Source: an uncultured Pluralibacter sp.
GTDB taxonomy: Bacteria > Pseudomonadota > Gammaproteobacteria > Enterobacterales > Enterobacteriaceae
Length of the DNA stretch: 24,000 bases
Assembly: GCF_913775985.1 (NCBI RefSeq)
Contig: NZ_CAJYMB010000096.1
Location: 12,609-36,608, forward strand
Direction: 5' to 3'
Under the pieces are notes generated by a model. That model had not been told where the DNA came from. It was given only the letters and a program-made list of their open reading frames with translations, and ran no database searches. Position numbers and translations under genes: made by a program. Shown piece after piece: positions 2,190 through 21,498 of this stretch (the first letter of the stretch is position 1; every line of letters begins with the position of its first letter).

Positions 2190-2208
2190 TAATTTGAGGG
2201 GGCGAACC

Positions 2209-2726: not shown

Positions 2727-2828
2727 GTGTTCGCCCTGGTCGATGTTAACTCATTTTACGCTTCATGCGAGACAGTTTTCAGACCCGATCTCCGTGGCAA
2801 ACCTGTGGTGGTGCTGTCTAATAACGAT
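2727..2828 (+). pseudogene. umuC: umuC fragment 1 (codons 1-34), interrupted
   Basis: GTG2727 lies 2 nt after the umuD stop. Translation gives [34 protein letters not shown], matching the E. coli UmuC N-terminus [34 protein letters not shown]. Homology ends abruptly after GAT 2826-2828. Confidence 0.9.
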
Positions 2829-2853
2829 CTGAGTGGTGAGAAGTGTTAGTTAG
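2828..2853 (+). repeat. Element A left terminal inverted repeat
   Basis: TCTGAGTGGTGAGAAGTGTTAGTTAG matches the reverse complement of 6964-6989 (TCTGAATGGCACTAACAGTTAGTAAT) at 17/26 positions. Identity is strongest in the terminal 9 nt and in the GTTAGT motif. Confidence 0.65.
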
Positions 2854-3065
2854 TTTCGAGCGTTCAATTCTTCAGTTTGAAGAAATAAATGGTCAGCTAT
2901 GAGCGAGGAGCGGACATTTACTATTCATACCTGTTTAGCGCCACACTCTTTTGAGTATTCCGATTGTCCGTACATCAGTGAGTACTCTTCCGGCGTGTTT
3001 GAGAGGCGCATTCCAGATCCGAATAGCGCCTCGCTCACCGTAAAAAACTCTTTATACTCTTTTTC

Positions 3066-5462: not shown

Positions 5463-5838
5463 GAACACTCCCCTAGCGCTGGCTATAGGTTGCCAATTTG
5501 CAATTGAAACAGATTGTTAATCTAGTCTACTCTGAGTTTAAGGAATGTTTGAATAGGTTATTGATACATTTGATGAATAATTTTATGAACTGAAATTCAA
5601 CACCCATCTAAATGCCCCTCAAAAAGTTCATAGGTTGAGGTTGGGTAATGAAGCTGGGACCTGCTCCCACCAGGTTGAAGAACATAGAACGTTAGCTATG
5701 TCCGCTCTTGGTCCAAAGGGGAATGGCATGGAGCTGAAGTCCGCTATGAGCGAACAGCAGACGTTGACTGATGACTACTCAGTGAATTCATCGTTATTGA
5801 GCATACCCTCCCGGCAACGAACTCAATCTCAATCGTTC

Positions 5839-6348
5839 TCAGACAGCTAGCGCTAGTTGTTGATGACGCTCTATAAATTTCGCTTTGAGGGCGCTATAGC
5901 GATGAGCATCGCTCCTGCTGACTAATACAGCTGCGTGTTTTATCTCAGCATACTCTTCTGCAATGTCTTTATTTCTTCGAAGATAATCACGGAAAGCAAG
6001 ATGTCTCAATACCTGCATATCTCCGACTGCAAACGCATGGACTTGATGACTACGCTGATCACCACCTTTAATGAAATATCTGCGCCCCGCAATCCCGTTC
6101 TCACCGCGAGCAACATACCCGGCGTGGGCCATTGCTGAATGGTACTTATCCAGTTCATTGATGTCGGAAACTTCAAGTAGCATATCAATTACGGGCTTTG
6201 CTGAGAGACCATGAACTGACGTGCTTCCAATATGATGGACATGCTTAGCCATTCCACCGAGCAATGTTTTTATCAGTAAACTTTCAGCTTCAAACATCTC
6301 AGGCCATCTATCATCGTATGGCACAATAATAATCTTACGCATAAACAC
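5839..6348 (-). CDS. GrpB-family (UPF0157) nucleotidyltransferase-fold protein
   Basis: Recognisable by IVPYDDRWPEMFEAE, HIGSTSVHGLSAKPVIDMLLEV (NTase G-S...D motif), RHLAFRDYLR and AEEYAxxK. The start is either GTG6348 or ATG6342. Confidence 0.7.
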   Translation of the reverse strand: MFMRKIIIVPYDDRWPEMFEAESLLIKTLLGGMAKHVHHIGSTSVHGLSAKPVIDMLLEVSDINELDKYHSAMAHAGYVARGENGIAGRRYFIKGGDQRSHQVHAFAVGDMQVLRHLAFRDYLRRNKDIAEEYAEIKHAAVLVSRSDAHRYSALKAKFIERHQQLALAV

Positions 6349-6373
6349 ATTCTCTCTGTCCTAAGTGTGCAAC

Positions 6374-6742
6374 TCAACCCTGAACCCCGGCATTGCCTGC
6401 AGCCGGCGTTGCTTGGTGAAAAAACAGAGTCCACTGGCCCTCATCCGAACAAATCCAGCAAGAGGAACGTAATGCATGATGGCTGCCATCAGCGTAAAAC
6501 GTCCGATAGTGAAGCAGAGCGTAACCGCAGCCCATCTCCGTAAGACGGAAATCGCTGCTGAGAATATAAGGTGCAGCCTTTTCACTTAGCAGCGACGCAA
6601 TGGTCTCTGACCGGTCGACCGTCACACCTGACCGGGTGATTTCACGGAATTCAGGATGAAGAATCAGTTCCAGCCACTCCGGATCATTGCGCCTGTCGCC
6701 GTGAAGGCTGCACTCAAGCAGTCTGAGCTTCTCCAGAAGCAT
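6374..6742 (-). CDS. NTF2-like / DUF4440-type small protein
   Basis: About 122 aa from ATG6742 (the ORF track extends to 6787). The sequence LLEKLRLLECSLH...PEWLELILHPEFREITRSGVTVDRSETI...WTLFFHQATP is typical of SnoaL/DUF4440-fold proteins. It ends 25 nt upstream of the grpB-like gene on the same strand. Confidence 0.55.
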   Translation of the reverse strand: MLLEKLRLLECSLHGDRRNDPEWLELILHPEFREITRSGVTVDRSETIASLLSEKAAPYILSSDFRLTEMGCGYALLHYRTFYADGSHHALRSSCWICSDEGQWTLFFHQATPAAGNAGVQG

Positions 6743-6963
6743 TATGCTTATCCTAAAGTGATTAAGCCGGACGTTCAAATTTACCATAACAGTTCATGCG
6801 CTACTTCCGCTTCTGGCACACTACGGACGGTGACTGATCATTTCCTTTTGAAGATGCTTCTCATCGGATGCGCTCTAAAAGTTGCTAACTGATGTAGCCC
6901 TCCGGGTCTTAACACACAGAAAAAGTTAGTAATTCAATACTCATGAAAATCATGTCGTTACAT

Positions 6964-6989
6964 ATTACTAACTGTTAGTGCCATTCAGA
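6964..6989 (-). repeat. Element A right terminal inverted repeat
   Basis: ATTACTAACTGTTAGTGCCATTCAGA is the partner of 2828-2853. GTTAGT motifs also occur at 6924-6929 and, inverted, at 6967-6972. Confidence 0.65.
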
Positions 6990-6998
6990 TACAATGAT

Positions 6999-7126
6999 GG
7001 CTGCATAATAGCCCGCTCCTCAGTAGCAAAATCACTTGGGTTAAAAATGGGCGATCCCTGGTTTAAGGTTGGTCGTGAGGCTGAGAGAAAGGGAGTTGTA
7101 GCATTTTCAAGTAATTACAGCTTATA
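6999..7126 (+). pseudogene. umuC: umuC fragment 2 (codons 35-76 plus 2 nt of codon 77)
   Basis: Translation gives GCIIARSSVAKSLGLKMGDPWFKVGREAERKGVVAFSSNYSL, matching E. coli GCVIARNAEAKALGVKMGDPWFKQKDLFRRCGVVCFSSNYEL. It is flanked on both sides by unrelated sequence. Confidence 0.9.
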
Positions 7127-7131
7127 GTAAG

Positions 7132-7146
7132 TTAAGTGGAATGCAA
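7132..7146 (+). repeat. Element B left terminal inverted repeat
   Basis: TTAAGTGGAATGCAA matches the reverse complement of 18095-18109 (TTATGTGGAATGCAA) at 14/15 positions. Confidence 0.8.
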
Positions 7147-7197
7147 CATTGAGTGAGTAAACTTTGAGCAGCGATATTGCTGTCAGAGGAGAACACG

Positions 7198-8184
7198 ATG
7201 CTGATCCCACCGAATGAACAAAGCCTATTGCTGGCAGAGCGCTGGCTGAAACTGTTATCCGATCTCGGGCGGGCGCAGGGCACACTCACCGCCTACCGTA
7301 GCGCCCTTCATCATTACTTTTCGTTCTGCAGCGAGAACGGAATTGAACCTGAAAAAGCCCGGTTTGAAGACCTCGCCGCCTACATCCGCCCTCAGCTGCC
7401 TGGCATGCCTTACCCTGCGGCCAGTGCCACGCTCCAGCTGCGCCTGTCTGCTATCCGTCTCTGGTATGACTTTCTTGTTTATCAGGATATATGCAGTCTC
7501 AATCCGCTACCCCGCGCGGGTTTACCGGGTGCCATTTATACCGGGCGGGGGCTTGTCCCGCGTATCACCCGCTTACCTGTAATACCTGACAATGAACAAT
7601 GGCTGAGATTTCTTAAACATGTTTCAGCTGCTTCCCTGCGGGACCGGCTGATGCTCGCACTGGCCTATTTTGGTGCACTCCGCCGTGCAGAGGTGACAGC
7701 CCTGACGCTTGAGGATATCGACCCTGCTCATCGCCTGATCCGTATCCGCCCGGAAACAACGAAAAGCCGGCGTGAAAGGGTTGTGTGCTATGGTCCGGAC
7801 ATTACGCCGGTACTGGCAAACCTTTTCCGGCAGCTGAAGCGGGCTGGCCGGACACAGGGGGCGTTGTTCCGTTCATTTTCTGATCGTAATTACGGCACTC
7901 CTCTTTCTGTGTGGAGCTGGAGTAAAACCGTGCGCAGATGGGCTCTGGATACGGGGCTTCCACAGATTACAACCCACACCTTTCGCCATCTTCGCCTGAC
8001 CCATCTGGCTCGGGCCGGCTGGAAGCTGCATGAGCTGGCGACTTATGCTGGACACAGAGATCCGCGCACCACACAGATTTATATCCATCTGTCAGGGTCC
8101 GATCTGTCTGGCCGGATAACCGCAGCCGTAGCTGAAACCGACAGGAAAATCGCTGGCCTTATTTTTCAGGCGGGGGCTTACTGA
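7198..8184 (+). CDS. Tyrosine recombinase (XerC/D-like, small subunit of the pair)
   Basis: Catalytic motifs are present: ALRRAEV (Arg I), HTFRHLRLTH (H-x-x-R) and GHRDPRTTQIYIH (His...Tyr). ATG7198 has AGGAG 6 nt upstream, so I prefer it to TTG7177. Confidence 0.85.
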   Translation: MLIPPNEQSLLLAERWLKLLSDLGRAQGTLTAYRSALHHYFSFCSENGIEPEKARFEDLAAYIRPQLPGMPYPAASATLQLRLSAIRLWYDFLVYQDICSLNPLPRAGLPGAIYTGRGLVPRITRLPVIPDNEQWLRFLKHVSAASLRDRLMLALAYFGALRRAEVTALTLEDIDPAHRLIRIRPETTKSRRERVVCYGPDITPVLANLFRQLKRAGRTQGALFRSFSDRNYGTPLSVWSWSKTVRRWALDTGLPQITTHTFRHLRLTHLARAGWKLHELATYAGHRDPRTTQIYIHLSGSDLSGRITAAVAETDRKIAGLIFQAGAY

Positions 8185-10301
8185 TGAGTGGAAAAAAAAA
8201 CACAGTCACTTATATACCTTTCAAACGCACAGATTATCAGCTGAGCGATGCGCTGAGTCCTGAGGAAAAAGACGCGATACGTACAGGCTACCGGCGGTCT
8301 GCTGCGCTCGATCGGCCAGATTCCCTGCCATATTTGCTGCTGCCTCTGCAGGACATTGCCTCACGAAGCAGTATCAGTGTCAGACTTGCCAGAATTACCC
8401 TCCTTGCCGTTCTTGCAGAAACGCACCGGTCGGGTCAGCCCTGCTGGCAGTGGACGCAGGAAAGATGGTTAACGCTCTGTGAGCAACACTGTTCCGGCAG
8501 GCCCCTGCTTGCTGCTTTTGCCTTTCATCTCGGTCCGTTTTCTTCTCCGCTCAGCCTGCCAGTGCATGGCGCACCGTCGTTGTACGCCAGTGCTATATAT
8601 GGCCGGAGTATTGTCAGTCATGAAATTAACCGGCTGACAGACGTTCTGATCTCAATGGGATATGCCGGGCAGAATCAGAAGCACAATATGTCCGGTATGC
8701 TGGGTGTACTGATGCTGATGAACAACGACCCGCGTCTTGAAACTTTTACGACAGACCTCCTGTGGCGGGGGCAGAACTGCCACGACCGGGGAATCGCAAG
8801 AGCTACGGGGAAAATATCCTGTGCGCTTGCTGCTATGGGAATTATAGAGAGCCCCCTGAGAATGCGTAACTATCAGGAATGGCATGAAAAGCCAACACAA
8901 GGTATCGCACCTGACTGGGCGCGGTGGTGCCGGATGTGGCGGGAAACGTCGGTACTCCGCCCCCGCTCCAGAGAAACTCAGTACAGTTTTATTCTCCGCT
9001 GTGGCCTGTGGCTTGCCCGGGAAAAGCCGGAAATATGCGAGCCCTCTGACTGGACAATGGAAACCTGCGCCAGCTTTATTGCAATGGTCGGCAGACTGAA
9101 AGTAGACGAGCTGTCACTGGATACAAAGAAAGGGGGCAGACAATCAAAACGCTCAGGAGAACCCCTGATGCCGCATTCCCGCAGCCGGTTTGTTTATGCC
9201 ATTCGCCGTTTTATGCTTGATTATGAAAGCTGGGGATGGGGGCGATTAAAGTTCAGTCCGGCCCGCCATCTGTCCACGCCTGATACACCGCTGTTTCGTC
9301 AGGGCGTGAGCCCCCGCGTTATTGATGATCCGGTCTGGCTCAGACTGGTCTGGGCGAGTCTGAACCTGCGTCAGGAAGATTTGCTGAGCGAAATTCATTA
9401 TCCCCTGTCTATGCTTCAGGCTATGGCGGTTATCTGGACGCATGCCGGGCTGCGACAGAACGAGCTGTTGCGCCTGACAATGAACTGCGTTACCCCACAG
9501 GTGGATGACATTCTGCAGGAAAACAGCAGCCCTGTCCCGGCCGGTACTCTGTGCTATCTCAGCGTACCAGCCGGCAAAACGTCTAAAGCTTTTGTTAAGC
9601 CAGTCTCGTCTGTTGTGAAAAAATATGTCGATATCTGGCTCAGTGAGCGTCCTCAGGAGCAGGCAGCATTTACGGATGAACGCACCGGTGAAAAAGTTCG
9701 TTATCTGTTTCAGAACCGGGGTAAACCGGTGGGAAGAAACATAATAAATCTCACTGTCATTCCGCTTCTCTGCGCCAGAGCGGGTATGTCTGTGGAAGAT
9801 TCACGCGGTCCCATTACCAGCCACCGCGGCCGTGCTTCTGCCGTTACAGCACTGGCCAGTGTTGCCGGGGGGATGTCTTTACATGAGCTGATGCAGTGGT
9901 CCGGCCATTCATCCCCACAGTCAACCCTGCATTATATTCGTATACGTCCGACTCAGCTGGCCGCTTCGTTCGTCAAAGCCGACAGGGTCTCTCATATGAT
10001 AAGCGTGCTGATTGACCACGATCCGGAAGCCGCCAGTCTGACCGGACCCGCGACGTACTATGATCTGGGTGACTCATACTGCACGAACCCTTTCTGGAGC
10101 AGCTGTCAGCACCGGATGGCCTGCATCGGCTGCGATTTTAACCTGCTTAAAGACAGCGCGCGCGGGCTGATAATGGAGAGTAAAGCATCCATCCGGCGTT
10201 ACCTTGAAGAGGTTCCGCTCACTCCCGATGAGAGATCCATACTGGAGCAGGATGCTGAAAAGGTTGAGCGGGTTCTTACAAGACTGGATCCACAATCCTG
10301 A
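8184..10301 (+). CDS. Large tyrosine recombinase (705 aa, Tn554 TnpB-like size class)
   Basis: The start overlaps the upstream stop (TGATG). Motifs are GLRQNELLRL, SHRGRASAVT and GHSSPQSTLHYIR. There is a long N-terminal extension and a Cys-rich C-terminal tail. Confidence 0.8.
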   Translation: MSGKKNTVTYIPFKRTDYQLSDALSPEEKDAIRTGYRRSAALDRPDSLPYLLLPLQDIASRSSISVRLARITLLAVLAETHRSGQPCWQWTQERWLTLCEQHCSGRPLLAAFAFHLGPFSSPLSLPVHGAPSLYASAIYGRSIVSHEINRLTDVLISMGYAGQNQKHNMSGMLGVLMLMNNDPRLETFTTDLLWRGQNCHDRGIARATGKISCALAAMGIIESPLRMRNYQEWHEKPTQGIAPDWARWCRMWRETSVLRPRSRETQYSFILRCGLWLAREKPEICEPSDWTMETCASFIAMVGRLKVDELSLDTKKGGRQSKRSGEPLMPHSRSRFVYAIRRFMLDYESWGWGRLKFSPARHLSTPDTPLFRQGVSPRVIDDPVWLRLVWASLNLRQEDLLSEIHYPLSMLQAMAVIWTHAGLRQNELLRLTMNCVTPQVDDILQENSSPVPAGTLCYLSVPAGKTSKAFVKPVSSVVKKYVDIWLSERPQEQAAFTDERTGEKVRYLFQNRGKPVGRNIINLTVIPLLCARAGMSVEDSRGPITSHRGRASAVTALASVAGGMSLHELMQWSGHSSPQSTLHYIRIRPTQLAASFVKADRVSHMISVLIDHDPEAASLTGPATYYDLGDSYCTNPFWSSCQHRMACIGCDFNLLKDSARGLIMESKASIRRYLEEVPLTPDERSILEQDAEKVERVLTRLDPQS

Positions 10302-10414
10302 CGGATCAGATGCTTACAATGTCCGGCCTGAGGGTGTCAGCGCAGAGTCAGTACAGACGACCGAACGTCGTATCTGATATAAATCTGATTATAGCGGGCG
10401 TGATGCCGTAACTG

Positions 10415-10828
10415 ATGGAGCCGCAGATGAGAAAACAGAAGCGATGTATGGGGTATGTGGCTGTTGTGGTCGATGACTACGATCGTGCAATTGAGTATTA
10501 CACCGATAAGCTGGGCTTTACCCTGATTGAGGACACGCCGCAGCCGGGTAAGCGCTGGGTCGTGGTGACGCCGGACCCTGACAGCGACTGTGCTATTCTT
10601 CTTGCCCGCGCGTCGAACGATCGGCAGGAAGGCTTTATCGGCAATCAGTGCGGCGGACGGGTTTTTCTGTTCCTGCAGACCGACAACTTCTGGCGCGACT
10701 ACAATGCTATGAAGGCAAAAGGCGTCCACTTCTGTCAGGAGCCGCGGGAGGAAGAATACGGAATGGTTGTCGTGTTTGAGGACATCTATGGCAATCGCTG
10801 GGACCTTTACCAGAACAGACAGACCTGA
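10415..10828 (+). CDS. VOC-family (glyoxalase/bleomycin-resistance fold) protein
   Basis: GYVAVVVDDYDRAIEYYTDKLGF...GGRVFLFLQTDNFWRDY...EYGMVVVFEDIYGNRWDL is typical of the VOC fold. The true start may be ATG10427 or ATG10448. Confidence 0.7.
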   Translation: MEPQMRKQKRCMGYVAVVVDDYDRAIEYYTDKLGFTLIEDTPQPGKRWVVVTPDPDSDCAILLARASNDRQEGFIGNQCGGRVFLFLQTDNFWRDYNAMKAKGVHFCQEPREEEYGMVVVFEDIYGNRWDLYQNRQT

Positions 10829-10933
10829 AACTCTGTCACGACAGTGCCCCGGATTTACGAGAAGCATTACAGGCGTAAACCCTGTCGGGTCAGGCCCGCA
10901 GAGAGCGCTTCTGAACAATATACTGAACTGTCT

Positions 10934-10965
10934 GACCTCAGTGCAGCGGTCGCTGCACTGAGGTC
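10934..10965. terminator. Perfect 15-bp palindrome between convergent VOC and crcB genes (candidate bidirectional terminator or protein-binding site)
   Basis: GACCTCAGTGCAGCG, then gt, then CGCTGCACTGAGGTC. There is no clear U-tract on either strand. Confidence 0.45.
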
Positions 10966-10995
10966 TCGCCTGGATTAAAGGCCGTACGGTCCGGG

Positions 10996-11376
10996 TTAAC
11001 CACACAGCGTCATGATATAAAATCCGGCCGCCGTCATGGCCAGCGAACCCAGCACGTGTATCAGCACCGAGGCGGCTGCCCAGGCATAGCTGCCTGACTG
11101 CAGCAGGGCAAAAACCTCAGCTGAAAATGTGGAGAAGGTCGTCATTCCTCCACACAGCCCGGTGGTAATGAGCAGCCGCCAGGCCGGATCGAGGCCGGGA
11201 TGGCGCAGAAAATACGCCAGGGCCGCCCCGATGATAAATCCACCCAGCAGGTTGACCAGCAGCGTCCCCGGCGGCAGGTCCGGAAAAAGCGCATTCAGGC
11301 GCGCGCCCAGCTGCCAGCGGATAACACACCCTAAAGCACCGCCGGTGATGACGGCAAAAAGCTGATTCACGTTCAC
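10996..11376 (-). CDS. crcB: Fluoride ion channel CrcB/FluC
   Basis: Colinear with E. coli CrcB (LFAVITGGALGCVIRW, GTLLVNLLGGFIIG, TTGLCGGMTTFSTFSAE). GTG11376 overlaps the gpmA stop (GTGA). GTG11370 is 5 nt after AAGGAG and is an equally good start. Confidence 0.9.
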   Translation of the reverse strand: MNVNQLFAVITGGALGCVIRWQLGARLNALFPDLPPGTLLVNLLGGFIIGAALAYFLRHPGLDPAWRLLITTGLCGGMTTFSTFSAEVFALLQSGSYAWAAASVLIHVLGSLAMTAAGFYIMTLCG

Positions 11377-12086
11377 TCCTTTTTTTTAATATTCAGAACA
11401 TCACGGGACACGACCTGGGCGGCCGCATCCATCTGATATACGACCGGCACGCCGGTCGGGATGTGCAGCTGTGCCACGCTGTCGTAAGGCATGCCGTCCA
11501 GGAAGGCGGTCAGGGCGCGCAGCGTGTTGCCGTGCGCCACAACCAGAACGGAACTTCCGCAGCGTAACTGCGGTACCACAGCATGCTGCCAGTACGGCAT
11601 GACGCGGCGCAGCGTCATTTCCAGGCTTTCCGTTGCAGGCAGGTCGGCCAGCGCAACGCGGCGGTAGCGCAGATCCCGACGCAGCTGCGCCGGAGCCTCC
11701 GCGTCCGCGGGCGGAATGCCGCTGAAGCTTTTGCGCCAGAGCCGGACAGTCTCTTCCCCCATTATCCGGGCAGCGTCGTCCTTGTTCAGCCCCTGCAGCG
11801 CCCCGTAGTGGCGCTCATTCAGTCGCCAGCTCTTTTCCACGGGCGTCCAGCTGCGGTCAAGACGGTCCAGCACCCGCCAGACCGTGTGAACGCAGCGTGT
11901 CATCACCGAGGTGAAGACACGGTCGGGCATCAGGCCCGCTGCCCGCAACGCGTCACCGGCCCGGTCGGCCTCCTGCCGCCCCCTGACCGTCAGCGGCACG
12001 TCTGTCCATCCGGTAAAACGGTTTTCCCGGTTCCACTGGCTTTCGCCGTGACGCAAAAGGATCAGCGTTGCAGAGGCCACAGGCAT
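11373..12086 (-). CDS. gpmA: 2,3-bisphosphoglycerate-dependent phosphoglycerate mutase family protein
   Basis: Carries the LILLRHGESQWNRENRFTGWTDVPLT histidine-phosphatase signature, plus ERHYGALQG and VVAHGNTLRAL. I placed the start at ATG12086 because the longer ORF-track form overlaps eno. Confidence 0.85.
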   Translation of the reverse strand: MPVASATLILLRHGESQWNRENRFTGWTDVPLTVRGRQEADRAGDALRAAGLMPDRVFTSVMTRCVHTVWRVLDRLDRSWTPVEKSWRLNERHYGALQGLNKDDAARIMGEETVRLWRKSFSGIPPADAEAPAQLRRDLRYRRVALADLPATESLEMTLRRVMPYWQHAVVPQLRCGSSVLVVAHGNTLRALTAFLDGMPYDSVAQLHIPTGVPVVYQMDAAAQVVSRDVLNIKKKE

Positions 12087-12123
12087 TCCTTCTGTGCCGG
12101 ACGGGGACCGTCCGGCGGATGTG

Positions 12124-13413
12124 CTACGTGCGGCGCACAAACGCATGAAGCCCCGCGTAGTGCGCATCGTCACCCAGCGCCTGCTCAATGCGCATCAGCT
12201 GGTTGTACTTTTCCACGCGTTCGCCGCGGCACGGCGCGCCGGTTTTCAGGTGTCCCGCGCGCAGGGCCACCGTCAGGTCGGCAAGGAACGTGTCCGTGGT
12301 TTCCCCGCTGCGGTGGGACATGAACGCGCCCCAGCCGTGCCGCTGGCAGAGCGCCACGGCGTCCAGCGTTTCGCTGAGCGAGCCTATCTGATTGAGTTTA
12401 ATCAGTGCGGCGCTGGCGAGGTTTTCGTCAATGCCGCGCTGGATATACTTCACGTTGGTGACAAACAGGTCGTCACCAACCAGTTCGGCCCTGCCCGCAA
12501 GCTGCCGGTGCAAATGCTTCCAGCCCGCCCAGTCGTCCTCGGCCAGGCCGTCTTCCAGCAGGATGACGGGAAACTGGTCCATCAGCTCGCCGTAGTATGC
12601 CGTCATTTCCGCCGCGCTCAGCGCGCTGCCCTCGGTGCGCAGATGATATTTGCCGTCTGCGAAAAACTCACTTGAGGCAGGGTCCATGCAGATGCTGATG
12701 TCTTCTCCGGGCCGGTATCCGGCTTTCTCAATGGCCTGTACGATAAACGCCAGCGGGTCGCGGTTTGACGACACGGCGGGCGCAAAACCGCCTTCGTCGC
12801 CCACTGCCGCCGACAGGTTGTTGTCCAGCAGGATCTGGCGCAGCGCCTGGTAGACCTCGCTGCCCTGACGTACGGCCTCGCGCAGCGTGGGTGCGCCGTG
12901 CGGGGCTATCATGAACTCCTGAAAGTCCGCGCCCTGACCGCGGGCGTGCACGCCGCCGTTGATAATGTTCATGCACGGCACGGGCAGCAGGTTCGCCTGC
13001 AGGCCACCCAGGTAGCGCCACAGCGGCTCGTGGGAGGCCTGTGCCGCCAGCCGGGCCACCGCCAGCGACACGCCCAGAATGGCATTGGCACCCAGGCGAC
13101 TCTTGTTCTCCGTGCCGTCCAGCGCCAGCATGATGTTGTCCAGCTGACGCTGTTCGCGCACGTCGCTGCCGCGCACGGCCTGGCAGATTTCCGTATTAAC
13201 CGCCCTGACGGCATCCAGCACGCCTTTACCGCCAAAACGGTGTGCGTCACCGTCGCGGCGCTCTGCGGCCTCGCGCGAGCCGGTACTGGCCCCGGAAGGC
13301 ACCGAGGCGCGCGCCATCATCCCGTCCGTAGTCCGGGCTTCAACTTCAACGGTGGGGTTGCCGCGCGAGTCAAGAATTTCACGGGCGGTTACGTTATCCA
13401 GTGTAAAGCGCAT
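12124..13413 (-). CDS. eno: Enolase (extra, island-borne copy)
   Basis: AREILDSRGNPTVEVE, SVPSGASTGSREA, DVAASEF-like, LLLKLNQIGSL-like and SHRSGETTDTFLADL motifs are colinear with bacterial enolase. Confidence 0.92.
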   Translation of the reverse strand: MRFTLDNVTAREILDSRGNPTVEVEARTTDGMMARASVPSGASTGSREAAERRDGDAHRFGGKGVLDAVRAVNTEICQAVRGSDVREQRQLDNIMLALDGTENKSRLGANAILGVSLAVARLAAQASHEPLWRYLGGLQANLLPVPCMNIINGGVHARGQGADFQEFMIAPHGAPTLREAVRQGSEVYQALRQILLDNNLSAAVGDEGGFAPAVSSNRDPLAFIVQAIEKAGYRPGEDISICMDPASSEFFADGKYHLRTEGSALSAAEMTAYYGELMDQFPVILLEDGLAEDDWAGWKHLHRQLAGRAELVGDDLFVTNVKYIQRGIDENLASAALIKLNQIGSLSETLDAVALCQRHGWGAFMSHRSGETTDTFLADLTVALRAGHLKTGAPCRGERVEKYNQLMRIEQALGDDAHYAGLHAFVRRT

Positions 13414-13428
13414 GGTGTTTCTCCCGGT

Positions 13429-13854
13429 TCAGTCAGTCAGGTGAGTGATAAGCACATCCACCGTAAGGTGGTTGATGTAGTCCGCCGAGCGGGAGGTGAG
13501 CATTCCCATAAAGCGGTTTCGGTGCCCGGCAAGCACGAGGTCCACGCCCAGCTCCGCGATGCACTTCTCCACGTCCTCAACGCGGCGCATGGTCACCAGC
13601 TCCCGCGTGTCTACCGTCTCAGGCACGGAGGCCGCCAGCTCACTCATAAACGCTTTGCCTTTCAGCACCTCCTCCGACACGACGTCGTCCATCAGGCTGT
13701 CAGACACGTAGTTCATCTCCCGGTAGTCGTCGCTGATGTGCGCCAGGGTGATTTTCATGCCGAGCGGCTGCGCCAGCGCGACCGCCCGTTTCAGCAGAAG
13801 AGTGCCGTCGTTTTTATCGTTCACAAGTATCAGTGCGTGGGTGTAGCAGGTCAT
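13429..13854 (-). CDS. Universal stress protein (UspA family)
   Basis: 141 aa. ILVNDKNDGTLLLKRAVALA...VDLVLAGHRN...SRSADYINHLTVDVLI is typical of the USP fold. The ATG overlaps the ppaC stop. Confidence 0.8.
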   Translation of the reverse strand: MTCYTHALILVNDKNDGTLLLKRAVALAQPLGMKITLAHISDDYREMNYVSDSLMDDVVSEEVLKGKAFMSELAASVPETVDTRELVTMRRVEDVEKCIAELGVDLVLAGHRNRFMGMLTSRSADYINHLTVDVLITHLTD

Positions 13855-14759
13855 AATGAACCTCCGTTCTGGTTAAGGCGGGACTCAAGCCACGGCAGAA
13901 GCTGCTTTTTGCGGCTGAGCATGCCCGGTACGGAGCAGGAGGCGACGTTAACGCTCTCCCGCCCGGCGAAGTAAAGCGTTGAGAACCCGGTACGAATGTC
14001 GGTCAGCATCAGCACCGCCAGGCCAGCTCCCGACTGGTCTGCCAGATACGCCAGTGCTGCGAGCAGGTCGTTCATCACGGGGGCAACCTGTGACGGTGAG
14101 CTGACCTCAATCTGGGCTATGCGCACGTCGGTGCCGGCAATGACGAAGGCCTTGAGGTCCCTGTCCAGCAGCTGCTGTGCGCTGAGGCCGCTGACGTCTG
14201 TTTTTGCGGTGAGGAGGTCACGGGCGAAGGCTCTGCGGTTTACGCCAGACAGTGCGCCCAGTTCGGTCGCCGAACGGATATCGTCTTCGGTGGTGGTCGG
14301 CGAGCGAAGATTCACGGTATCACTCAGGAGTGCGCCCAGCAGAAGCACGGCGAGCGTCGGGGGCAGCATGCGGCGCGCTTCTGCGTCCATCAGCAGCCAG
14401 AGCAGCGTGGCGCTGCTGCCAACCGGGCGAATATGTACCTCCGGCGGCAGTTGCGTTATCAGCCCGCCCAGCCGGTGGTGGTCAGTGATGCCCACGACGT
14501 TGCTCCGGAGCAGGTCGTCAGGCCCCTGTGCCGGTTCGGTGAAATCGACCAGCCAGACCCGTTCATCCTTTAGCGGAAAAGCGAGCAGCGGCGGCAGCGT
14601 GAGGCCGGCGGCGTCAAAGATAAAGCGGGTTTCCCGGTTAGCCTCGCCGAGACGCCATGCGCGGGCATCCATTCCGCGCCCGGTCAGCCAGTGTGCGGTG
14701 ACGACGGTCGTGCAGATGGCGTCGCTGTCAGGATTAATGTGGCCAAAAACGTGTATCAC
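13851..14759 (-). CDS. ppaC: Family II (DHH/DHHA2, Mn-dependent) inorganic pyrophosphatase
   Basis: HVFGHINPDSDAI, ITDHHR, PVGSSATL, LLSDTVNLRSPTTT and SRKKQLLPWL are colinear with PpaC. The start is GTG14759, preceded by GGGGAGAGA. Confidence 0.88.
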   Translation of the reverse strand: MIHVFGHINPDSDAICTTVVTAHWLTGRGMDARAWRLGEANRETRFIFDAAGLTLPPLLAFPLKDERVWLVDFTEPAQGPDDLLRSNVVGITDHHRLGGLITQLPPEVHIRPVGSSATLLWLLMDAEARRMLPPTLAVLLLGALLSDTVNLRSPTTTEDDIRSATELGALSGVNRRAFARDLLTAKTDVSGLSAQQLLDRDLKAFVIAGTDVRIAQIEVSSPSQVAPVMNDLLAALAYLADQSGAGLAVLMLTDIRTGFSTLYFAGRESVNVASCSVPGMLSRKKQLLPWLESRLNQNGGSL

Positions 14760-14841
14760 AGGTCTCTCCCCATAGAGGGAAGTACGCAGGCCGGGAGGAA
14801 AGTAAGGACGGCCTGACGCACCTCCTGAAAATCAAGAGTCA

Positions 14842-14901
14842 CATCAGGCGTCATCAGCTCCTGAACGGAGCGGTTGGGAAGGGTGGAACGCCATCACCCT
14901 G
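14842..14901 (-). promoter_or_regulatory. Fluoride riboswitch (crcB RNA motif) in the ppaC operon leader
   Basis: The minus strand reads AGGGUGAUGGCGUUCCACCCUUCCCAACCGCUCCGUUCAGGAGCUGAUGACGCCUGAUG. P1 is GGGUG/CACCC, P3 is GCUCC/GGAGC, and the pseudoknot is GGCGU/ACGCC. The conserved GAUGG, AACCGC and CUGAUGA elements sit as in the Thermotoga aptamer GGGCGAUGAGGCCCGCCCAAACUGCCCUGAAAAGGGCUGAUGGCCUC. Confidence 0.9.
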
Positions 14902-14908
14902 TACTGTG

Positions 14909-14937
14909 AGTATAGAGCCGGTTGCAAAACCTGTCAG
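14909..14937 (-). promoter_or_regulatory. Sigma70 promoter of the fluoride operon
   Basis: On the minus strand: CTGACA, 17-nt spacer, TATACT. This predicts a transcription start near 14902, immediately 5' of the riboswitch. Confidence 0.7.
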
Positions 14938-14956
14938 TATTATTCCGGCGGCGCTC

Positions 14957-15556
14957 TCAGCCCGCCAGCGCAGTGCGTGCCTCGCGGAGCACCTGGCGGA
15001 TGTTTTCCGGCACTGCCGGGCTTGTGCAAAGCGACAGCGGGCTGGGGTGAGGCATAGTCAGCACCGTGACGCCGGGGCGAAGGCAGCTGACCGTCCCGCG
15101 GGCCTGCGCCGCTACGGCACCGGCCAGCACCACCACGCGCAGCGCGGGCAGATACGCCAGCACGCCCTCAAGCCAGGCGCAGCCGCTGCGGATGTCCGCC
15201 GCTGAGGGCCGTTTCTGCGGCCCGTCACTGACCCAGGGCACCGTATTCCACAGCACGCTGTCCCGGCGCGCAATACCGGCCTCCGCCAGAAACCGCCCCA
15301 GATTCTGCTGGGCCGGCCCCGGGTTATCTCGCGAAACGAACCGGGGTGACGGGCTGCTGCGCGCCGGCGACTGCAGCAGGACAAGCAGTCCGGCCCCGGT
15401 CCCGCCGTCGGCCGGATCAAACCACGGCAGTTCCACGCCGGCCTGACGCTGCCCGCTGACCCAGCGATTCAGCGCGGCTACGTGCGGCGCGGTAATCGCC
15501 GCGAGGCGCTCCTCGCGCAGAAAGGGGTCCAGCAGCGACGTGCAGGTTTCACTCAC
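14957..15556 (-). CDS. Uracil-DNA-glycosylase-superfamily-like protein
   Basis: About 199 aa from GTG15556, which overlaps the upstream TGA (GTGA). It has an alternating beta-strand/helix pattern (LLVLLQSP, VLWNTVPW, VVVLAGAVA) and a C-terminal MPHPSPLS motif like the HPSP motif of family 4/5 UDGs. The ORF-track N-terminal extension overlaps the transporter gene and is unlikely to be real. Confidence 0.45.
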   Translation of the reverse strand: MSETCTSLLDPFLREERLAAITAPHVAALNRWVSGQRQAGVELPWFDPADGGTGAGLLVLLQSPARSSPSPRFVSRDNPGPAQQNLGRFLAEAGIARRDSVLWNTVPWVSDGPQKRPSAADIRSGCAWLEGVLAYLPALRVVVLAGAVAAQARGTVSCLRPGVTVLTMPHPSPLSLCTSPAVPENIRQVLREARTALAG

Positions 15557-16713
15557 GACTTCCGGTCCAGGCCTGCCAGGCAGGGGGAAACAAAGAGTTT
15601 CCCGCTCCATGCCCCGCGCACCGTCTTCACAGCGACAAGCAGCCACATGGCGGCCAGCATGACGACAAGAAGCGCGCCGAAGCCTTTAAAGAACGCCAGG
15701 TCAACGAGGGTGGACAGCTTCAGCGTGGCGACGGTGTACACGCCCAGCGGGAAGGTAAAGCCCCACCATCCCAGGTTGAACGGAATGCCTTCACGAAAGT
15801 ATCGCACGGTTATCAGCGTGGCCAGCAGCATCCACCACAGGCCGCAGCCCCAGAAGAGAATGCCGGCAACGAACCCCACGCCCTGCGCGATGTGAGCGAT
15901 TTCCGGCATGCCCGCCGCGGCAAACACCCCGGGCGCATCGCCGCCGATGACCAGCATACCGAGCGAACCGGTGCCAATCGGCCCCAGGGCCAGCCAGCTT
16001 GAGGCTGCCATGCTTTCGTGCGGCAGCTTGTGCAGGGCCATACGCAGCAGCAGGATGGCAAGGATGCTCAGCGCCACCGGTACGGAGTAAGCCCACAGCA
16101 CGTAGCTGGTAATAATGATGCCGAGCTGCGCGTGGGTGTCGGCAATGTGCGGCGCCAGCAGGCCGCCGCTGACCGCTGCGACCTCGGCAGCCACAACCGG
16201 CAGTAACCAGACGGCCGTCATCTGGTCAATGCTGTGCTGCTGCCGGGTAAACATCATGTAAGGAATACACACGCCGCACAGCAGCGACATCGCCACGTCC
16301 AGCCACCACAGGGCGTGCGCCACCGGAATGACGTCTGCGCCCCACCGGGGAAGACCGAACGCCAGCAGGCCGTTGATGATGGTCGCCATGCCCATCGGGA
16401 TGGTGCCGAAGAACATGGACACGGTTGAATGGCCGAAGATGCGCTTTGCCTCACCGAAGTACATGACCCAGCGGGCCAGATACATCACGGCAAAAACGCT
16501 GAACAGCAGGATGTTAAACATCCACAGCCCTTCCGCGACGAGGCGCAATCCCGGAACCGGCCAGGGGAACTGCGCCAGAGACAGCGACAGGATACCGGTT
16601 CCCATGGTGGCGGCGAACCAGTTTGGCGTGAACTGACGTATGGCCTCTTTCGGGCTGCTCAGCGCGCTCAGCGGGCGTGCTCCGTTATGCAGGGTAAATA
16701 TTTTATCGTTCAT
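15553..16713 (-). CDS. TDT-family (TehA/Mae1/SLAC1-like) anion transporter
   Basis: 386 aa with about 10 TM helices. The N-terminal FTPNWFAATMGTGILS motif is characteristic of C4-dicarboxylate/tellurite-resistance (PF03595-type) transporters. Confidence 0.7.
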   Translation of the reverse strand: MNDKIFTLHNGARPLSALSSPKEAIRQFTPNWFAATMGTGILSLSLAQFPWPVPGLRLVAEGLWMFNILLFSVFAVMYLARWVMYFGEAKRIFGHSTVSMFFGTIPMGMATIINGLLAFGLPRWGADVIPVAHALWWLDVAMSLLCGVCIPYMMFTRQQHSIDQMTAVWLLPVVAAEVAAVSGGLLAPHIADTHAQLGIIITSYVLWAYSVPVALSILAILLLRMALHKLPHESMAASSWLALGPIGTGSLGMLVIGGDAPGVFAAAGMPEIAHIAQGVGFVAGILFWGCGLWWMLLATLITVRYFREGIPFNLGWWGFTFPLGVYTVATLKLSTLVDLAFFKGFGALLVVMLAAMWLLVAVKTVRGAWSGKLFVSPCLAGLDRKS

Positions 16714-16811
16714 GCCGGGATCTCCTGTGTAAACAGAAACAGTATAGGCATGCAGACGTAAATCTTTAAAACAGGTTATTCAGCTAAAATAAATCTGTAA
16801 AAGTGGTTTAT

Positions 16812-16858
16812 CCTCCCTCACCCTGCGAAAGACTGTTACTGCACCGGAGTGAGGGAGG
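16812..16858 (-). terminator. Stem-loop after the beta-propeller gene
   Basis: CCTCCCTCAC (16812-16821) pairs with GTGAGGGAGG (16849-16858), a 10-bp GC-rich stem with a long 27-nt loop. It lies 8 nt downstream of the stop. The U-tract is weak. Confidence 0.4.
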
Positions 16859-16865
16859 GACTGAA

Positions 16866-17867
16866 TCAGGCCTTCGGCGGGCTTTTAATCGTGGCCGTGA
16901 CGCGGTTCTGTTTCAGGTCAACCACCGAAATACTGAGGTCTTTATTCAGCACCCACGCGCGGGCACTGTCTTTACTGAAAACGATGGCCTGACGGGGCGC
17001 ATCCAGTCCGGTAACAGTGGCGACCACCTTACCGGCGGCGGTATCAATAACGGAGAGGCTGTTGTCACCCAGGTTGCCGCTGTAAACATAGCGGTTATCC
17101 GGTGTCAGGGCGGCACCGTAAGGGTCCTGCCCCACGGGAATGGTTGCCGTAATGGCGCGCTTCTGCGTGTCAACCACTGCGATGGTGTTGCTCCCGCTGT
17201 TAGCCGCGTAAAGCGTGCGGCCGTCGGCGCTGACAGAAATGGCGCGCAGCTTGCTGAAGCCGGTTATCTCGCCGCGAATCTCACCCGTTACGGCGTCAAC
17301 GAGGGTGATTTTATCGCCCTTAAAGTTGGTGACGTAGACGGTTTTGCCGTCCGGGCTGATTTTGATGCCCTGACGGGGCTGAGCAAAACCCGTCACAACC
17401 GAAACGGGCCGGTTGTGGGTCAGGTCATACACCGAGAGTGTGCTGGCGGCTTCGTTATTCACATACAGACGCTGACCGTCACGGCTGATGGCTGTACCGA
17501 ATGCCCCGGCCCCCAGCGGCAGCGTGGTCTCCACGTCAAGCGTCCCGGTGCTGATTTTTCTGACCACGCCGAGGCTGCTGTCTGAAAGATATACAGCCTT
17601 CCCGTCGGGGGAGAAAAGCGCATTGCGGGGCGTGACGTATCCCTTCAGCACCTTTCTGACTTTGCCGTTAACCAGGTCGTAAACCACCACGTCAGGGAGC
17701 TCACTGTAGGAGGCCACCGCCGTTTTTTCATCGGGACTGACAGCAAGAGAATTGTTGTGGATATCGCCGTCAAACGTCCAGCGCGCCTCTGCGGCACCGG
17801 CGAGGGTGCTGATGAGAAGAAGCGCCACCGCGGTCAGTCCCGGGATCCTGTATTTTTTTATCATCAT
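16866..17867 (-). CDS. Secreted YVTN/YncE-like seven-bladed beta-propeller protein
   Basis: Signal peptide MMIKKYRIPGLTAVALLLISTLAGAAEA, followed by repeated SPDGKxxYVxN / xxxxLSVID blades typical of YncE/lactonase-type propellers. Confidence 0.75.
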   Translation of the reverse strand: MMIKKYRIPGLTAVALLLISTLAGAAEARWTFDGDIHNNSLAVSPDEKTAVASYSELPDVVVYDLVNGKVRKVLKGYVTPRNALFSPDGKAVYLSDSSLGVVRKISTGTLDVETTLPLGAGAFGTAISRDGQRLYVNNEAASTLSVYDLTHNRPVSVVTGFAQPRQGIKISPDGKTVYVTNFKGDKITLVDAVTGEIRGEITGFSKLRAISVSADGRTLYAANSGSNTIAVVDTQKRAITATIPVGQDPYGAALTPDNRYVYSGNLGDNSLSVIDTAAGKVVATVTGLDAPRQAIVFSKDSARAWVLNKDLSISVVDLKQNRVTATIKSPPKA

Positions 17868-18094
17868 TTTTCCTGCATAGGGGGTGGTAAGGGATAAGAC
17901 TCATTGCCCGCTTAAGGGCTTCAGAAGAAGCGTGGCAGATAACCCCCTCTCAGGGAAATCGATTTTCCGGCTATGTCTTACCAGTTCACTTCTTTATGCT
18001 CTGAGCGGAGGTAAACTGCAGCAATTTAAGGCTGAATAAGTGGGGCTCTGGATTTCAGTCCATGAGGAATAGTTGCTCATTTTTTTTGTTTAAA

Positions 18095-18109
18095 TTGCAT
18101 TCCACATAA
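18095..18109 (-). repeat. Element B right terminal inverted repeat
   Basis: TTGCATTCCACATAA is the partner of 7132-7146. Confidence 0.8.
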
Positions 18110-18110
18110 A

Positions 18111-19152
18111 TGCTGATATGTCAGACAGAGTGATGACTATTTTGCAGCTTCTAACCCCGCGCGTGGAAATATACAGCATTGATGAGGCATTTTGTGATCT
18201 TCAAGGGGTGAGTAATCTGTTGTCGCTTGAAGAGTTTGGCCATCATATACGTACTCAGATTAAGCGAAGAACACATCTGACTGTGGGAGTGGGAATAGGC
18301 CCTACAAAAACGCTCGCCAAACTGGCTCAGTATGCAAGTAAGCGCTGGCCCGCAACGCGAGGTGTGGTAGATCTCAGTGACAGAGAGCGTCAGCGTAAGT
18401 TAATGGCTTTAGTGCCAGTTGAGGAGATCTGGGGTATCGGACGTAGGCTGGGTAAAAAACTACAATTTATGGGAATTAACAATGCACTTCAGCTGGCAGA
18501 GCTGTCACCTTCATTCATTCGTAAACAGTTCTCAGTAGTTGTTGAGCGCACGGTCAGAGAGCTGAACGGCACTCCTTGCCTCGGTTTAGAAGAATTTACT
18601 GCCCCAAAAGAACAAATCATATGCTCCCGATCTTTTGGAGAAAAACCGTCGGACGAAGTCAGCCTGCATCAGGCCATTTGCGCTCATGCTGAACGTGCAG
18701 CAGAAAAACTCCGTGCAGAGCATCAATTTTGTAAACGGGTAGCAGTTTTCATTAGTACCAGCCCTTTCTCAGAAAATGAGCTGTTTTATAAGAACCAGGC
18801 GGTAACAGAGCTTGCTGTACCCGCTCAGGATTCACGGGATATCATCAACGCGGCTATAAAGGCATTTGATACGATATTTGTCCCAGGGCACCGTTATCAT
18901 CGTGCTGGCGTGATGCTCACTGATTTCCGAAGCGCTGCTGTATCTCAATTGACCCTTTTTGATGACTTTCAGCCCCATCGAAACAGCGAGGAGCTGATGA
19001 CATTAATCGATAGCATTAATCACTCAGGTAAAGGTTCGGTCTGGTTTGCAGGGCAGGGCATTAAAAGTGATGCCACAGGCTGGAAGATGCGAAGAGAAAG
19101 ACTTTCGCCTGCCTTTACAACCAGGCTGGATGACATAATCAAGGTGAAGTAG
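18111..19152 (+). pseudogene. umuC: umuC fragment 3 (last base of codon 77 to stop)
   Basis: Translation gives ADMSDRVMTILQLLTPRVEIYSIDEAFCDLQGV...THLTVGVGIGPTKTLAKLA...IWGIGRR...LSPAFTTRLDDIIKVK, colinear with E. coli UmuC residues 78-422. Confidence 0.92.
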
Positions 19153-20655: not shown

Positions 20656-20793
20656 CCTGAGAGGGGTGCCTTCGGGCGGTTACCAGCTAATGCTTCAGCG
20701 GTCTGAGAGAAGCGCCTTCGGGTGACTGCCAGCTAAAGTCCCGAAAACCTGAGAGGGACGCCTTTGGGCGGGAAACCCGTTTAACCTTTGAAA
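20656..20793 (+). repeat. Three tandem 46-bp imperfect repeats, each with a CTGAGAG box and a UUYG-capped hairpin
   Basis: Units start at 20656, 20702 and 20748: CCTGAGAGGGGTGCCTTCGGGCGG..., TCTGAGAGAAGCGCCTTCGGGTGA..., CCTGAGAGGGACGCCTTTGGGCGG... The first two also share CCAGCTAA. Confidence 0.7.
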
Positions 20794-21027
20794 ACGGGAA
20801 CCATAACCTGGTCAAGGTTACCGGTTGAGAATGACCGGCTATCACATCAATGATTCACGTCTTTATGATGATGAATTGTCTACAAAGGAGCTGAATCAGG
20901 CTCTGATCTTTCACTACGTTATGATTCTTTTCAGGGATTCGCCCTGAGTTTCGTACGACTTTTGCACCGACGGATAAGGTCATTTGGTACATTTGGCCGC
21001 TTACGGCGTTGCATTAGGAGCACGAAG

Positions 21028-21115: not shown

Positions 21116-21498
21116 CAACGTTTTACTACCATCTGACCAACATGTAGCCCGTGTCAGTACGGTTTTAAAATCACTTTCACATCAACGTAAGCACGACGGG
21201 AGGCCGTCTGAACGTTCAACTATCAGTAAGGAGGAAATCGACTCGGTATCGATGGCGACACTACGAGCAGTAGTGTTGGAGGCAGCTTGACGTAAGTCAG
21301 CTCTGCATAAGCAGCAAACAGATCAGAGATCTGGGGTGCCTCGCAAGAACTCAACAATTCGCCGCCCCGATGCACAGATACCAGTCGAGACGCAGGAAGC
21401 GCAAAAGCAACCGTGTCGTCGGGGAATGAATTGCTGGTCTACAGATCCGTCTGCTTCTTTACAAGCAGAGGGACGTGTATGCCTTTGGAGAGAGTGAA

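Follow-up and report, generated by a model that had tools for sequence, protein, structure and literature searches.

The window analysed here is a 24,000-nucleotide stretch of contig NZ_CAJYMB010000096.1, from an uncultured Pluralibacter sp. Within it, positions 7126/7127 to 18109/18110 form a 10,984-bp site-specific integrative element that is inserted in umuC and is one member of a large family, apparently without a name so far. All that the members of this family have in common is a pair of overlapping tyrosine recombinase genes, one short and one long, at the left end, together with terminal inverted repeats (IRs) of 13-15 bp and a spacer of 6 nt that adjoins the left repeat (IRL). We propose that such an element is probably moved by its own two recombinases via a circular form, by an exchange at one border that keeps the element's own spacer at the left junction (attL). 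This proposal draws on the sequences of the ends and junctions across the family.

The boundaries of the element can be placed to the base (Table 1). The two terminal repeats are reverse complements of each other at 14 of 15 positions. A search with TTAAGTGGAATGCAA, allowing up to two mismatches, gives these two matches only in the 24-kb window, against 0.05 expected, and none of the shuffled sequences reached two. In the window, umuC lies in three pieces (2727-2828, 6993-7125/7126 and 18110/18111-19152), of which the element forms the second interruption. Excising 7127-18110 in silico brings back the in-frame UmuC motif FSSNYSLYADMSDRVM, and the same operation in five other, strongly diverged umuC alleles yields SSNY(E/A/S)LY(G/A)D(M/L)S. 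The junctions are thus base-precise in six independent alleles, and because the reading frame is restored in all of them, the target is neither duplicated nor deleted. An intact copy of the window's own umuC allele had no close match in plasmids (blastn, distant mode), which is why the empty site is deduced from frame restoration in the six alleles. GTAAG (7127-7131) and A18110 lie outside both umuC and the IRs. Since A7126 equals A18110, these six junction nucleotides can be read as a single block, AGTAAG (7126-7131), that abuts IRL. The GC content is 54-68% within the element and 40-47% in its flanks. An earlier note, made from the letters of this DNA, had described the repeats, the lack of a target duplication and the six unassigned nucleotides, and all of these hold.

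The family was surveyed by a tblastn search of plasmids with the large recombinase, by HMMER against 1.84 billion representative proteins (E<=1e-30) and by a scan of species-representative genomes. These yielded 544 plasmid records, chiefly from Klebsiella, Escherichia, Citrobacter, Pantoea, Enterobacter and Salmonella, 307 protein clusters, and 80 loci in Gamma-/Alphaproteobacteria, Acidobacteria and others. The comparison with other umuC alleles, which the earlier note had proposed, reveals related copies that share the ends and carry different cargo. This cargo comprises arsenic and copper resistance in Pantoea agglomerans pAR1aC (16.6 kb), restriction-modification and an ATPase in Klebsiella grimontii, a type II CBASS in Klebsiella pneumoniae, large ATPase genes in Pseudomonas aeruginosa pUM505, and a dehalogenase and others in Paracoccus. 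Anti-phage-type cargo is seen in Klebsiella relatives, where p13190-VIM has WYL and MPN/JAB proteins (L008, 11185-16114) and pWCGKP294-2 a complete type II CBASS with CD-NTase, E1/JAB and SAVED (L018, 14272-18584). In Rhodococcus and Terracidiphilus, cargo-less copies of 3.4-3.6 kb consist of the two genes and the ends only and lie in an IS256 transposase gene and a UvrD-like gene, respectively. Their existence indicates that two genes plus ends are a sufficient unit.

Across elements with different cargo, conservation is confined to the spacer, to the last 13-15 nt at the ends and to a short GTAAACTTTGA block that follows IRL; no subterminal repeat or arm-type site common to the elements was found outside these parts. 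IRL is retained as TTAnnTGGAAT from Pantoea to Rhodococcus, and only about the last 13 nt of the right repeat (IRR) are conserved among elements with different cargo. We define the shared end architecture as a 6-nt spacer followed by TTAnnTGGAAT ... ATTCCACAnAA, a feature that is not in the literature. This architecture, the target consensus and the spacer rule described below were not found in the searchable literature, which is itself incomplete, so that their novelty is not proven.

The two junctions behave differently. Sequence upstream of the large-recombinase match was available for 71 loci, and 60 attL flanks were scored. In 66 of the 71 loci, A[G/T/A]T[A/T]AG stands before the best IRL match that lies upstream of the recombinase pair. 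The spacer reads AGTAAG in 42 and ATTAAG in 15 of the scored flanks, and the remaining three are single variants. It is near-constant in all 66 recovered left junctions, including relatives with 50-70% identical recombinases and wholly different cargo, and this constancy between clades marks the spacer as part of the element. The right ends of the scanned loci (n=31) never carry an element-type spacer. Instead, most continue with a host 6 bp (AYGSNG and variants) and the rest of umuC. Every observed product can accordingly be written as B-(element spacer)-IRL ... IRR-(host 6 bp)-B'. None of the 66 left and 31 right ends shows the opposite outcome, in which attL would have the host 6-mer and the right junction (attR) AGTAAG.

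The target is similarly well defined. The umuC SSNYxL site forms the flank in 54 of the 60 scored attL, with 49 distinct flank sequences. The insertion point lies inside the Tyr codon of SSNYxLY/GDMS (slash, junction), and the element is usually co-oriented with umuC (54/60). At the DNA level the site has the consensus ...AAcTAcGcgCTnT/AcgncG/ataTGag... and shares with the element only the first base of the 6-mer, often its last, and the TATG-like start of the right arm. In Pseudomonas soli (L005) and Stutzerimonas (L053), the insertion in umuC has the opposite orientation. The L005 junction is shifted, with the host 6-mer TATGGT, which suggests that the target is read as a partly symmetric site. 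L005 also differs in its right end and carries a chemotaxis-receptor gene in addition. Elsewhere, several solo right ends are clustered, each followed by a umuC 3' fragment (L040, 19765-21965; L088, 9458-13377), which suggests nested or successive insertions and a route for swapping cargo and right ends between elements. In Methylomonas and Methylobacter (L073-L081, L094), no more than 270-815 nt separate IRL from the large-recombinase match downstream of it, which is ~2.7 kb long, and the gene arrangement of this clade may differ, for example through a fused or rearranged short recombinase.

The two recombinase genes overlap in cTGATGa, as had been stated, and Pfam Phage_integrase is found in both products. 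The catalytic residues R/K/HxxR/H/Y are complete in both. In the long recombinase, an N-terminal helical extension of ~375 aa precedes the catalytic domain, and R424, K465, H547, R550, H575 and Y584 are invariant across the family. For comparison, Tn554 proteins were taken from pWBG14 (with ErmA as bait) and those of integrative elements of the strand-biased circularizing type (SEs) from the tmexCD1 SE of pHNAH8I-1. At the sequence level, homology between the small recombinase and Tn554 TnpA is clear (25% identity over 336 aa, E 8e-18; BLAST, dbsize 1e8). The small recombinase scores 86 bits against TnpA and 54 bits against the XerD structure, its best match in the PDB. Its best curated models are XerC/XerD, but at 99 bits it stays far from their cut-off of 335. 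The large recombinase is more weakly related to TnpB. BLAST aligns 23% identical residues over 288 aa (E 0.047), and the profile of the large family matches TnpB in hhalign with E 2.8e-5 and a probability of 74% over 235 columns (376-653). These include the C-terminal motif YC-x7-C-xHxxAC-xxC, which TnpB also has (YC-x7/8-C in the profile alignment). The N-terminal 375 aa cannot be aligned with TnpB. An AlphaFold model of the large recombinase has a mean pLDDT of 65.5, and its confident part is the N-terminal helical domain only. Foldseek of this model against the PDB returned nothing significant (best, IntI4, E 0.055), and a PDB profile search with the family gave zero matches.

In BLASTP (E<=10), neither recombinase matches any of the four tmexCD1 SE proteins IntA, Tfp, IntB and Srap, and the large-family profile aligns with IntB over only 18 columns (hhalign, E 0.22). 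The earlier note had seen no third small gene beside the pair, and indeed tblastn finds no homologue of TnpC, Srap or Tfp in any of the six frames of the window, the best TnpC (DUF6262) match having E 0.1 over 16 aa. In every relative, a different gene follows that of the large recombinase (VOC, ArsR, restriction endonuclease, CD-NTase).

The element had been called Tn554/SE-like. The first half of this label stands, given the similarity to both TnpA and TnpB, and the second does not, as there is no IntA or IntB match and tfp and srap are absent. Tn554 (TnpA 361 aa, TnpB 630 aa, TnpC 125 aa) likewise has a short-then-long recombinase order at its left end and inserts site-specifically into a conserved gene without target duplication. 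Unlike Tn554, in which TnpC (DUF6262) is needed for or stimulates transposition, the element lacks TnpC and has clear 15-bp IRs. The target of Tn554 is radC in Staphylococcus, whereas the element uses umuC in Proteobacteria. In Tn554, the host core GATGTA of radC adjoins the tnpA end, whereas the element has its own invariant 6 nt there. According to the Tn554/SE rule, the 6 bp of the target adjoin the recombinase end and those of the donor go to the other end, so that they change with each hop (PMC10214605). The element does not follow this footprint rule, in which the left 6 bp of the donor appear at the new right junction. The note had also invoked carried-over coupling nucleotides, and this fails, since the spacer is constant in the 66 left junctions and never resembles a previous umuC target.

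A closer counterpart is found among the 'Tn554-related' long and short pairs that Van Houdt et al. 2012 described in Actinobacteria, some of which are without TnpC (PMC3414803). These pairs overlap, with short proteins of ~330-350 aa and long proteins of ~700-830 aa, and our element has the same composition. Its large recombinase is 32-35% identical, over nearly the full length, to long proteins on Rhodococcus and Streptomyces plasmids, and 31% identical over 721 aa to the large recombinase of L008. The copy on Rhodococcus pRZP2 is cargo-less and shares the overlapping pair, the end motif (TTACGTGGAAT and ATTCCACAGAA) and a 6-nt spacer. Ends, spacer and target were not defined in PMC3414803, and the Rhodococcus copy lies in an IS256 transposase gene, not in umuC. 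On this sequence evidence, we place the element with the TnpC-less branch of the Tn554 lineage and not with the SEs. The 'bipartite modules' (BIM) of the same paper were rejected as a match because their second gene is not a recombinase. The XerD islands of the PAGI-97B type (PMC8373256) were considered as well, with no evidence of a link.

How might these elements move? In the mechanism that we favour, the two recombinases, as distant homologues of TnpA and TnpB, would cooperate on a circular form of the element. The joint of this circle would be IRR-AGTAAG-IRL, that is (TTGC)ATTCCACATAA-AGTAAG-TTAAGTGGAAT(GCAA), with two inverted arms around the 6-bp spacer, and for this copy it is predicted to read ...TTCCACATAA-AGTAAG-TTAAGTGGAA.... 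The joint would recombine with the degenerate umuC site ...CTnT/AYGSNG/AYATGAG.... If productive exchange always takes place on one strand at the left border of the spacer, attL would retain the spacer of the element and attR would receive the host 6 bp. The two 6-bp regions agree only at the first base (often also the last), so the second strand would probably be left to replication or repair. Excision by the same rule would restore umuC, predicted as ...TTATATGCTGAT..., and regenerate the same joint.

Non-homologous one-strand exchange that is completed by replication or repair is known from XerCD with CTX-type phages and from IntI with integron cassettes. The element resembles these systems (IMEX/CTX-phage XerCD, integron attC x attI) in its dif-like core, the non-homologous overlaps and a one-strand exchange with a fixed border, but by analogy only: it has two recombinases of its own and inserts into a protein-coding motif instead of dif or attI. 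The predicted joint agrees with E. coli dif at 18 of 28 positions, and its arms agree with the XerD arm at 8-9 of 11.

The position of the recombinase genes poses the question whether their expression is linked to that of umuC. The start codon of the short recombinase lies ~65 nt inside the junction. Together with the co-orientation in 54 of 60 cases and the failure to find a promoter of its own, this makes it plausible, for the family, that the recombinases are expressed by read-through from the LexA-controlled umuDC promoter. The same read-through argument was made for the rulB ILEs by Rhodes et al. (PMC4542609).

Several observations weigh against the proposed mechanism. No circle, empty-site product or excision event was observed for any member. 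A scan for natural joints (IRR-N6-IRL) gave no match in genome_contigs and one in metagenomes (L011, 8095-8124; contig Ga0265780_10000131), which reads CCATTCCACATAA-AGTAAG-IRL. It is followed downstream by a recombinase pair that comes with metal-resistance cargo, and its left neighbours are amino-acid metabolism genes. This joint may be a tandem array or an insertion into the right end (attR) of another element. The one-strand exchange is inferred solely from the pattern of the junctions, and the large protein resembles TnpB only modestly, and only in its C-terminal half. As to expression, the scan that returned no sigma70-like promoter at 6900-7300 was a crude consensus test, and SOS read-through is unlikely to reach the copy in the window because a second, 4.2-kb insertion cuts umuC upstream of it. 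Two further joint matches, in viral_contigs (L101, 4439-4466; L102, 132-159; IMG/VR, low-GC), are perfect palindromic dif-like sites, ATTCCACATAA-GGTATA-TTATGTGGAAT. Their arms are identical to the right-end arm of the family, and they come without a recombinase pair; these are probably unrelated Xer-type sites.

The junction pattern could also arise in other ways. In a conventional cut-and-paste reaction, both strands would be exchanged 6 bp apart with a heteroduplex intermediate, and the pattern would result from biased repair or from selection against copies with the wrong spacer. Both recombinases have full catalytic sets, and wrong-spacer copies, being unable to move, might disappear with time. 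In addition, Tn916 and CTnDOT tolerate heterologous overlaps. However, immobile fossils of the second type would then be expected, and they are seen at none of the 31 right and 66 left ends; moreover, the two overlaps agree at positions 1 and 6 only. We consider this route unlikely. A Tn554-style transposition that carries the 6 bp of the donor, with AGTAAG as a frozen donor footprint, would fit the TnpA/TnpB homology, the common gene order and the absence of a target duplication, and one copy (L004) has AGTATG, which resembles GTATG of umuC. Yet a single hop from umuC should leave AYGSNG, and this was found at 0 of 66 left and 31 right junctions, in clades whose recombinases are 50-100% identical. 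The 6 bp next to the tnpA end, host core in Tn554, are not host sequence here, and TnpC (DUF6262) is missing. This makes a donor footprint improbable.

Membership in the SEs would imply that one strand is copied out with six bases at the left end, which are left as a footprint at the next right end. The resemblance is considerable, as SEs (SE-6283, SE-6945, tmexCD-toprJ) have short and long RHRY recombinases, imperfect repeats of 13-19 bp, 6-bp junctions and no duplication, and umuC is a known hotspot for those carrying tmexCD (PMC10214605; PMC9134201). Their core is intA-tfp-intB-srap, whereas the element has only the two recombinase genes, without detectable similarity to the SE proteins, and thus lacks tfp and srap, two of the four essential genes. 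Recombination of attL with attR in SEs gives circles and leaves no empty donor site. In SEs, the 6 bp of attB are found at attL and the donor footprint at attR; in the element this is reversed and invariant, with the spacer proximal and the host 6 bp distal to the recombinases and no moving footprint. These differences refute membership, which we rate as very improbable, although strand-biased exchange as such is probably common to both. Mobilisation as an IMEX, with host XerC/XerD acting on the dif-like ends and the element's own recombinases accessory or serving another purpose, has hardly any credibility. The likeness of joint and arms to dif and the XerC/XerD matches of the small recombinase speak for it. 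Against it, IMEXs by definition have no recombinase of their own, whereas here the two genes and the ends are the sole conserved module across hundreds of elements, cargo-less ones included; the target is umuC and not dif, and the Xer models score far below their cut-off. A relic that can no longer move, and that reached new places solely by plasmid transfer and by homologous recombination in the umuC flanks, would agree with the lack of demonstrated excision and with the disrupted large recombinase gene on plasmid record NZ_CP022520. We regard this as next to negligible, because near-identical elements with base-perfect junctions are found in umuC alleles whose divergence is too great for homologous exchange, and because 49 distinct flank sequences were recovered. 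Exchange at one border with retention of the element's own spacer is thus the reading that we prefer.

The cargo of the element consists of a riboswitch-controlled fluoride operon and four further genes (Table 1). The earlier note's 'complete fluoride-resistance island' is a fair label by homology, as judged from the RF01734 riboswitch and the order ppaC-usp-eno-gpmA-crcB. The riboswitch and gene order are those of the FRM operon of Enterobacter cloacae (ppaC-uspA-eno-gpmA-crcB), which was experimentally shown to be fluoride-induced and needed for high resistance, and which lies in a chromosomal island flanked by transposases (PMC5533749). This particular copy is already in the literature, descriptively, as fragment R4' of pPV989-94, a 10.7-kb insertion in umuC 'mediated by phage integrases' with two integrases and gloA, crcB, gpmA, eno, uspA, ppaC, ung, mae1 and HET-E-1 (Xu et al. 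2018, PMC5971314). Neither PMC5971314 nor PMC5533749 gives ends, spacer, family or mechanism. Copies that are 99.96-99.98% identical over 10,984 bp are present on plasmids of Pantoea vagans, P. agglomerans and P. anthophila, next to umuC sequences that are only about 68% identical. Complete E. coli genomes contain no copy of this element. The window itself is a conjugative-plasmid-like region, with a TraG_N gene upstream of umuDC.

Table 1. Positions of umuC, the junctions, the recombinase genes and the cargo in the window
Feature	Position	Strand	Remarks
S24-peptidase (umuD-like) gene	2194-2724		Pfam Peptidase_S24; SOS operon context
umuC codons 1-34	2727-2828	+	read from sequence; starts directly 3' of the S24-peptidase gene
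umuC middle fragment	6993-7125	+	NDGCIIARS...FSSNYSL and T of the Tyr codon; left arm (B) of target site
Core spacer AGTAAG	7126-7131	+	element's own; A7126 ambiguous with A18110
IRL	7132-7146	+	TTAAGTGGAATGCAA
Short tyrosine recombinase, 328 aa	7198-8184	+	TnpA-like/Xer-like; R..K..HxxR..H..Y motif complete
Long tyrosine recombinase, 705 aa	8184-10301	+	
VOC/glyoxalase-family gene	10427-10828	+	adjoins recombinases
Fluoride operon ppaC-usp-eno-gpmA-crcB	10996-14759	-	
crcB (CrcB)	10996-11370	-	Pfam/NCBIfam
gpmA, dPGM-type phosphoglycerate mutase	11373-12080	-	Pfam/NCBIfam
eno, enolase	12124-13413	-	Pfam/NCBIfam
usp, universal stress protein	13429-13854	-	Pfam/NCBIfam
ppaC, DHH/DHHA2 Mn-pyrophosphatase	13851-14759	-	Pfam/NCBIfam
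Fluoride riboswitch aptamer, upstream of ppaC	14838-14907	-	Rfam RF01734, 50.2 bits (gathering score 34), E 2.3e-11
UDG-superfamily protein	14957-15556	-	
TDT/SLAC1 anion transporter	15553-16713	-	
YncE-like beta-propeller	16866-17864	-	
IRR	18095-18109	-	top strand TTGCATTCCACATAA
Host target 6 bp, then umuC 3' part	18110-19152	+	ATGCTG at 18110-18115; 344-aa ORF starts at Met of DMS motif (18118)

The element is not the only user of umuC. At least four can be separated, namely the present family (at two sites), elements of the GInt/ILE type and one more insertion. The second site of the family is occupied by a sister clade with 31-34% identity, which has the IRL TTATTTGGAATTGAC and the spacer TCTATG or TATATG. 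It inserts at ARS/xEAK (codon ~42) in the opposite orientation (L018, 10780-10830; L035, 30-60; L067, ~8660-8680; L071, ~8075-8095), often in the same umuC copy as an element at the first site and only 114 nt away.

GInts and the rulB ILEs are likewise site-specific and enter rulB, a homologue of umuC; their adaptive cargo varies, and their recombinase genes lie just inside the 5' junction (PMC4542609, PMC5385486). The mobility of ILEs into rulB was experimentally shown (Rhodes 2014, PMC4542609; Bardaji 2017, PMC5385486). They differ from our element in having three recombinase-fold genes and a ginD/tetR-like gene (ginA-ginB-ginC-ginD), a gene set that it lacks, and in their site, the GAT of YSID/E, ~70 nt downstream of its own. 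The 'T3SE-ILEs' of Pseudomonas syringae (L061) may belong to the family described here. In P. aeruginosa pUM505 (L017, 22665-22830), umuC is cut again at YSID/E by a GInt/ILE-type module with a 430-aa integrase and a 578-aa protein. This is a separate element, ~70 nt (elsewhere given as 150 nt) downstream of the right end of the family element, so that a single umuC hosts three different mobile elements.

The other insertion in the window (2829-6992, 4.2 kb) interrupts umuC after codon ~34 (SNND/). It carries genes for an AAA_13 ATPase (3066-5468, - strand), GrpB and DUF4440, with no recombinase or transposase. The 27 nt of its right end (reverse complement GTATCTGAATGGCACTAACAGTTAGTA) abut the same umuC codon in pUM505, there beside a Tn3-family transposase. 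Downstream of umuC, the window has a STAXI RNA (20664-20822, 100.7 bits) and an EFASI RNA (21238-21387, 88.4 bits), followed by an Integrase_1/Phage_int_SAM_2 gene (21475-22398).

Plasmid umuC/rulB has repeatedly been described as a 'hotspot' where resistance and virulence cargo is inserted, but it has not been made clear which machines use the gene. For one of these, we give defining features (ends, spacer and target consensus) that are testable. The family is common, with plasmid records that include Klebsiella, Citrobacter, Enterobacter, Salmonella and E. coli, and it carries fluoride, arsenic or copper resistance, restriction-modification, CBASS or no cargo. Its recognition would improve the annotation of plasmids, where the genes now appear only as 'tyrosine-type recombinase/integrase'. 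As a prediction, the invariant spacer cleanly distinguishes the mechanism from those of Tn554 and the SEs, and it could help to explain the working of heteromeric short/long recombinase pairs. More tentatively, and as a possibility that we would not yet back, these elements may form a major class of tyrosine-recombinase mobile elements, so far unrecognised, in Gamma-/Alphaproteobacteria, Acidobacteria and Actinobacteria, with a short/long pair, dif-like ends and an invariant spacer, moving by single-strand exchange that is resolved by replication without a footprint. Through their co-orientation near the start of the LexA-controlled umuDC operon, their mobility would be coupled to the SOS response, and two sister clades would share umuC at codons ~77 and ~42 in opposite orientations. 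If this is true, the elements would at the same time carry resistance and anti-phage cargo from plasmid to plasmid.

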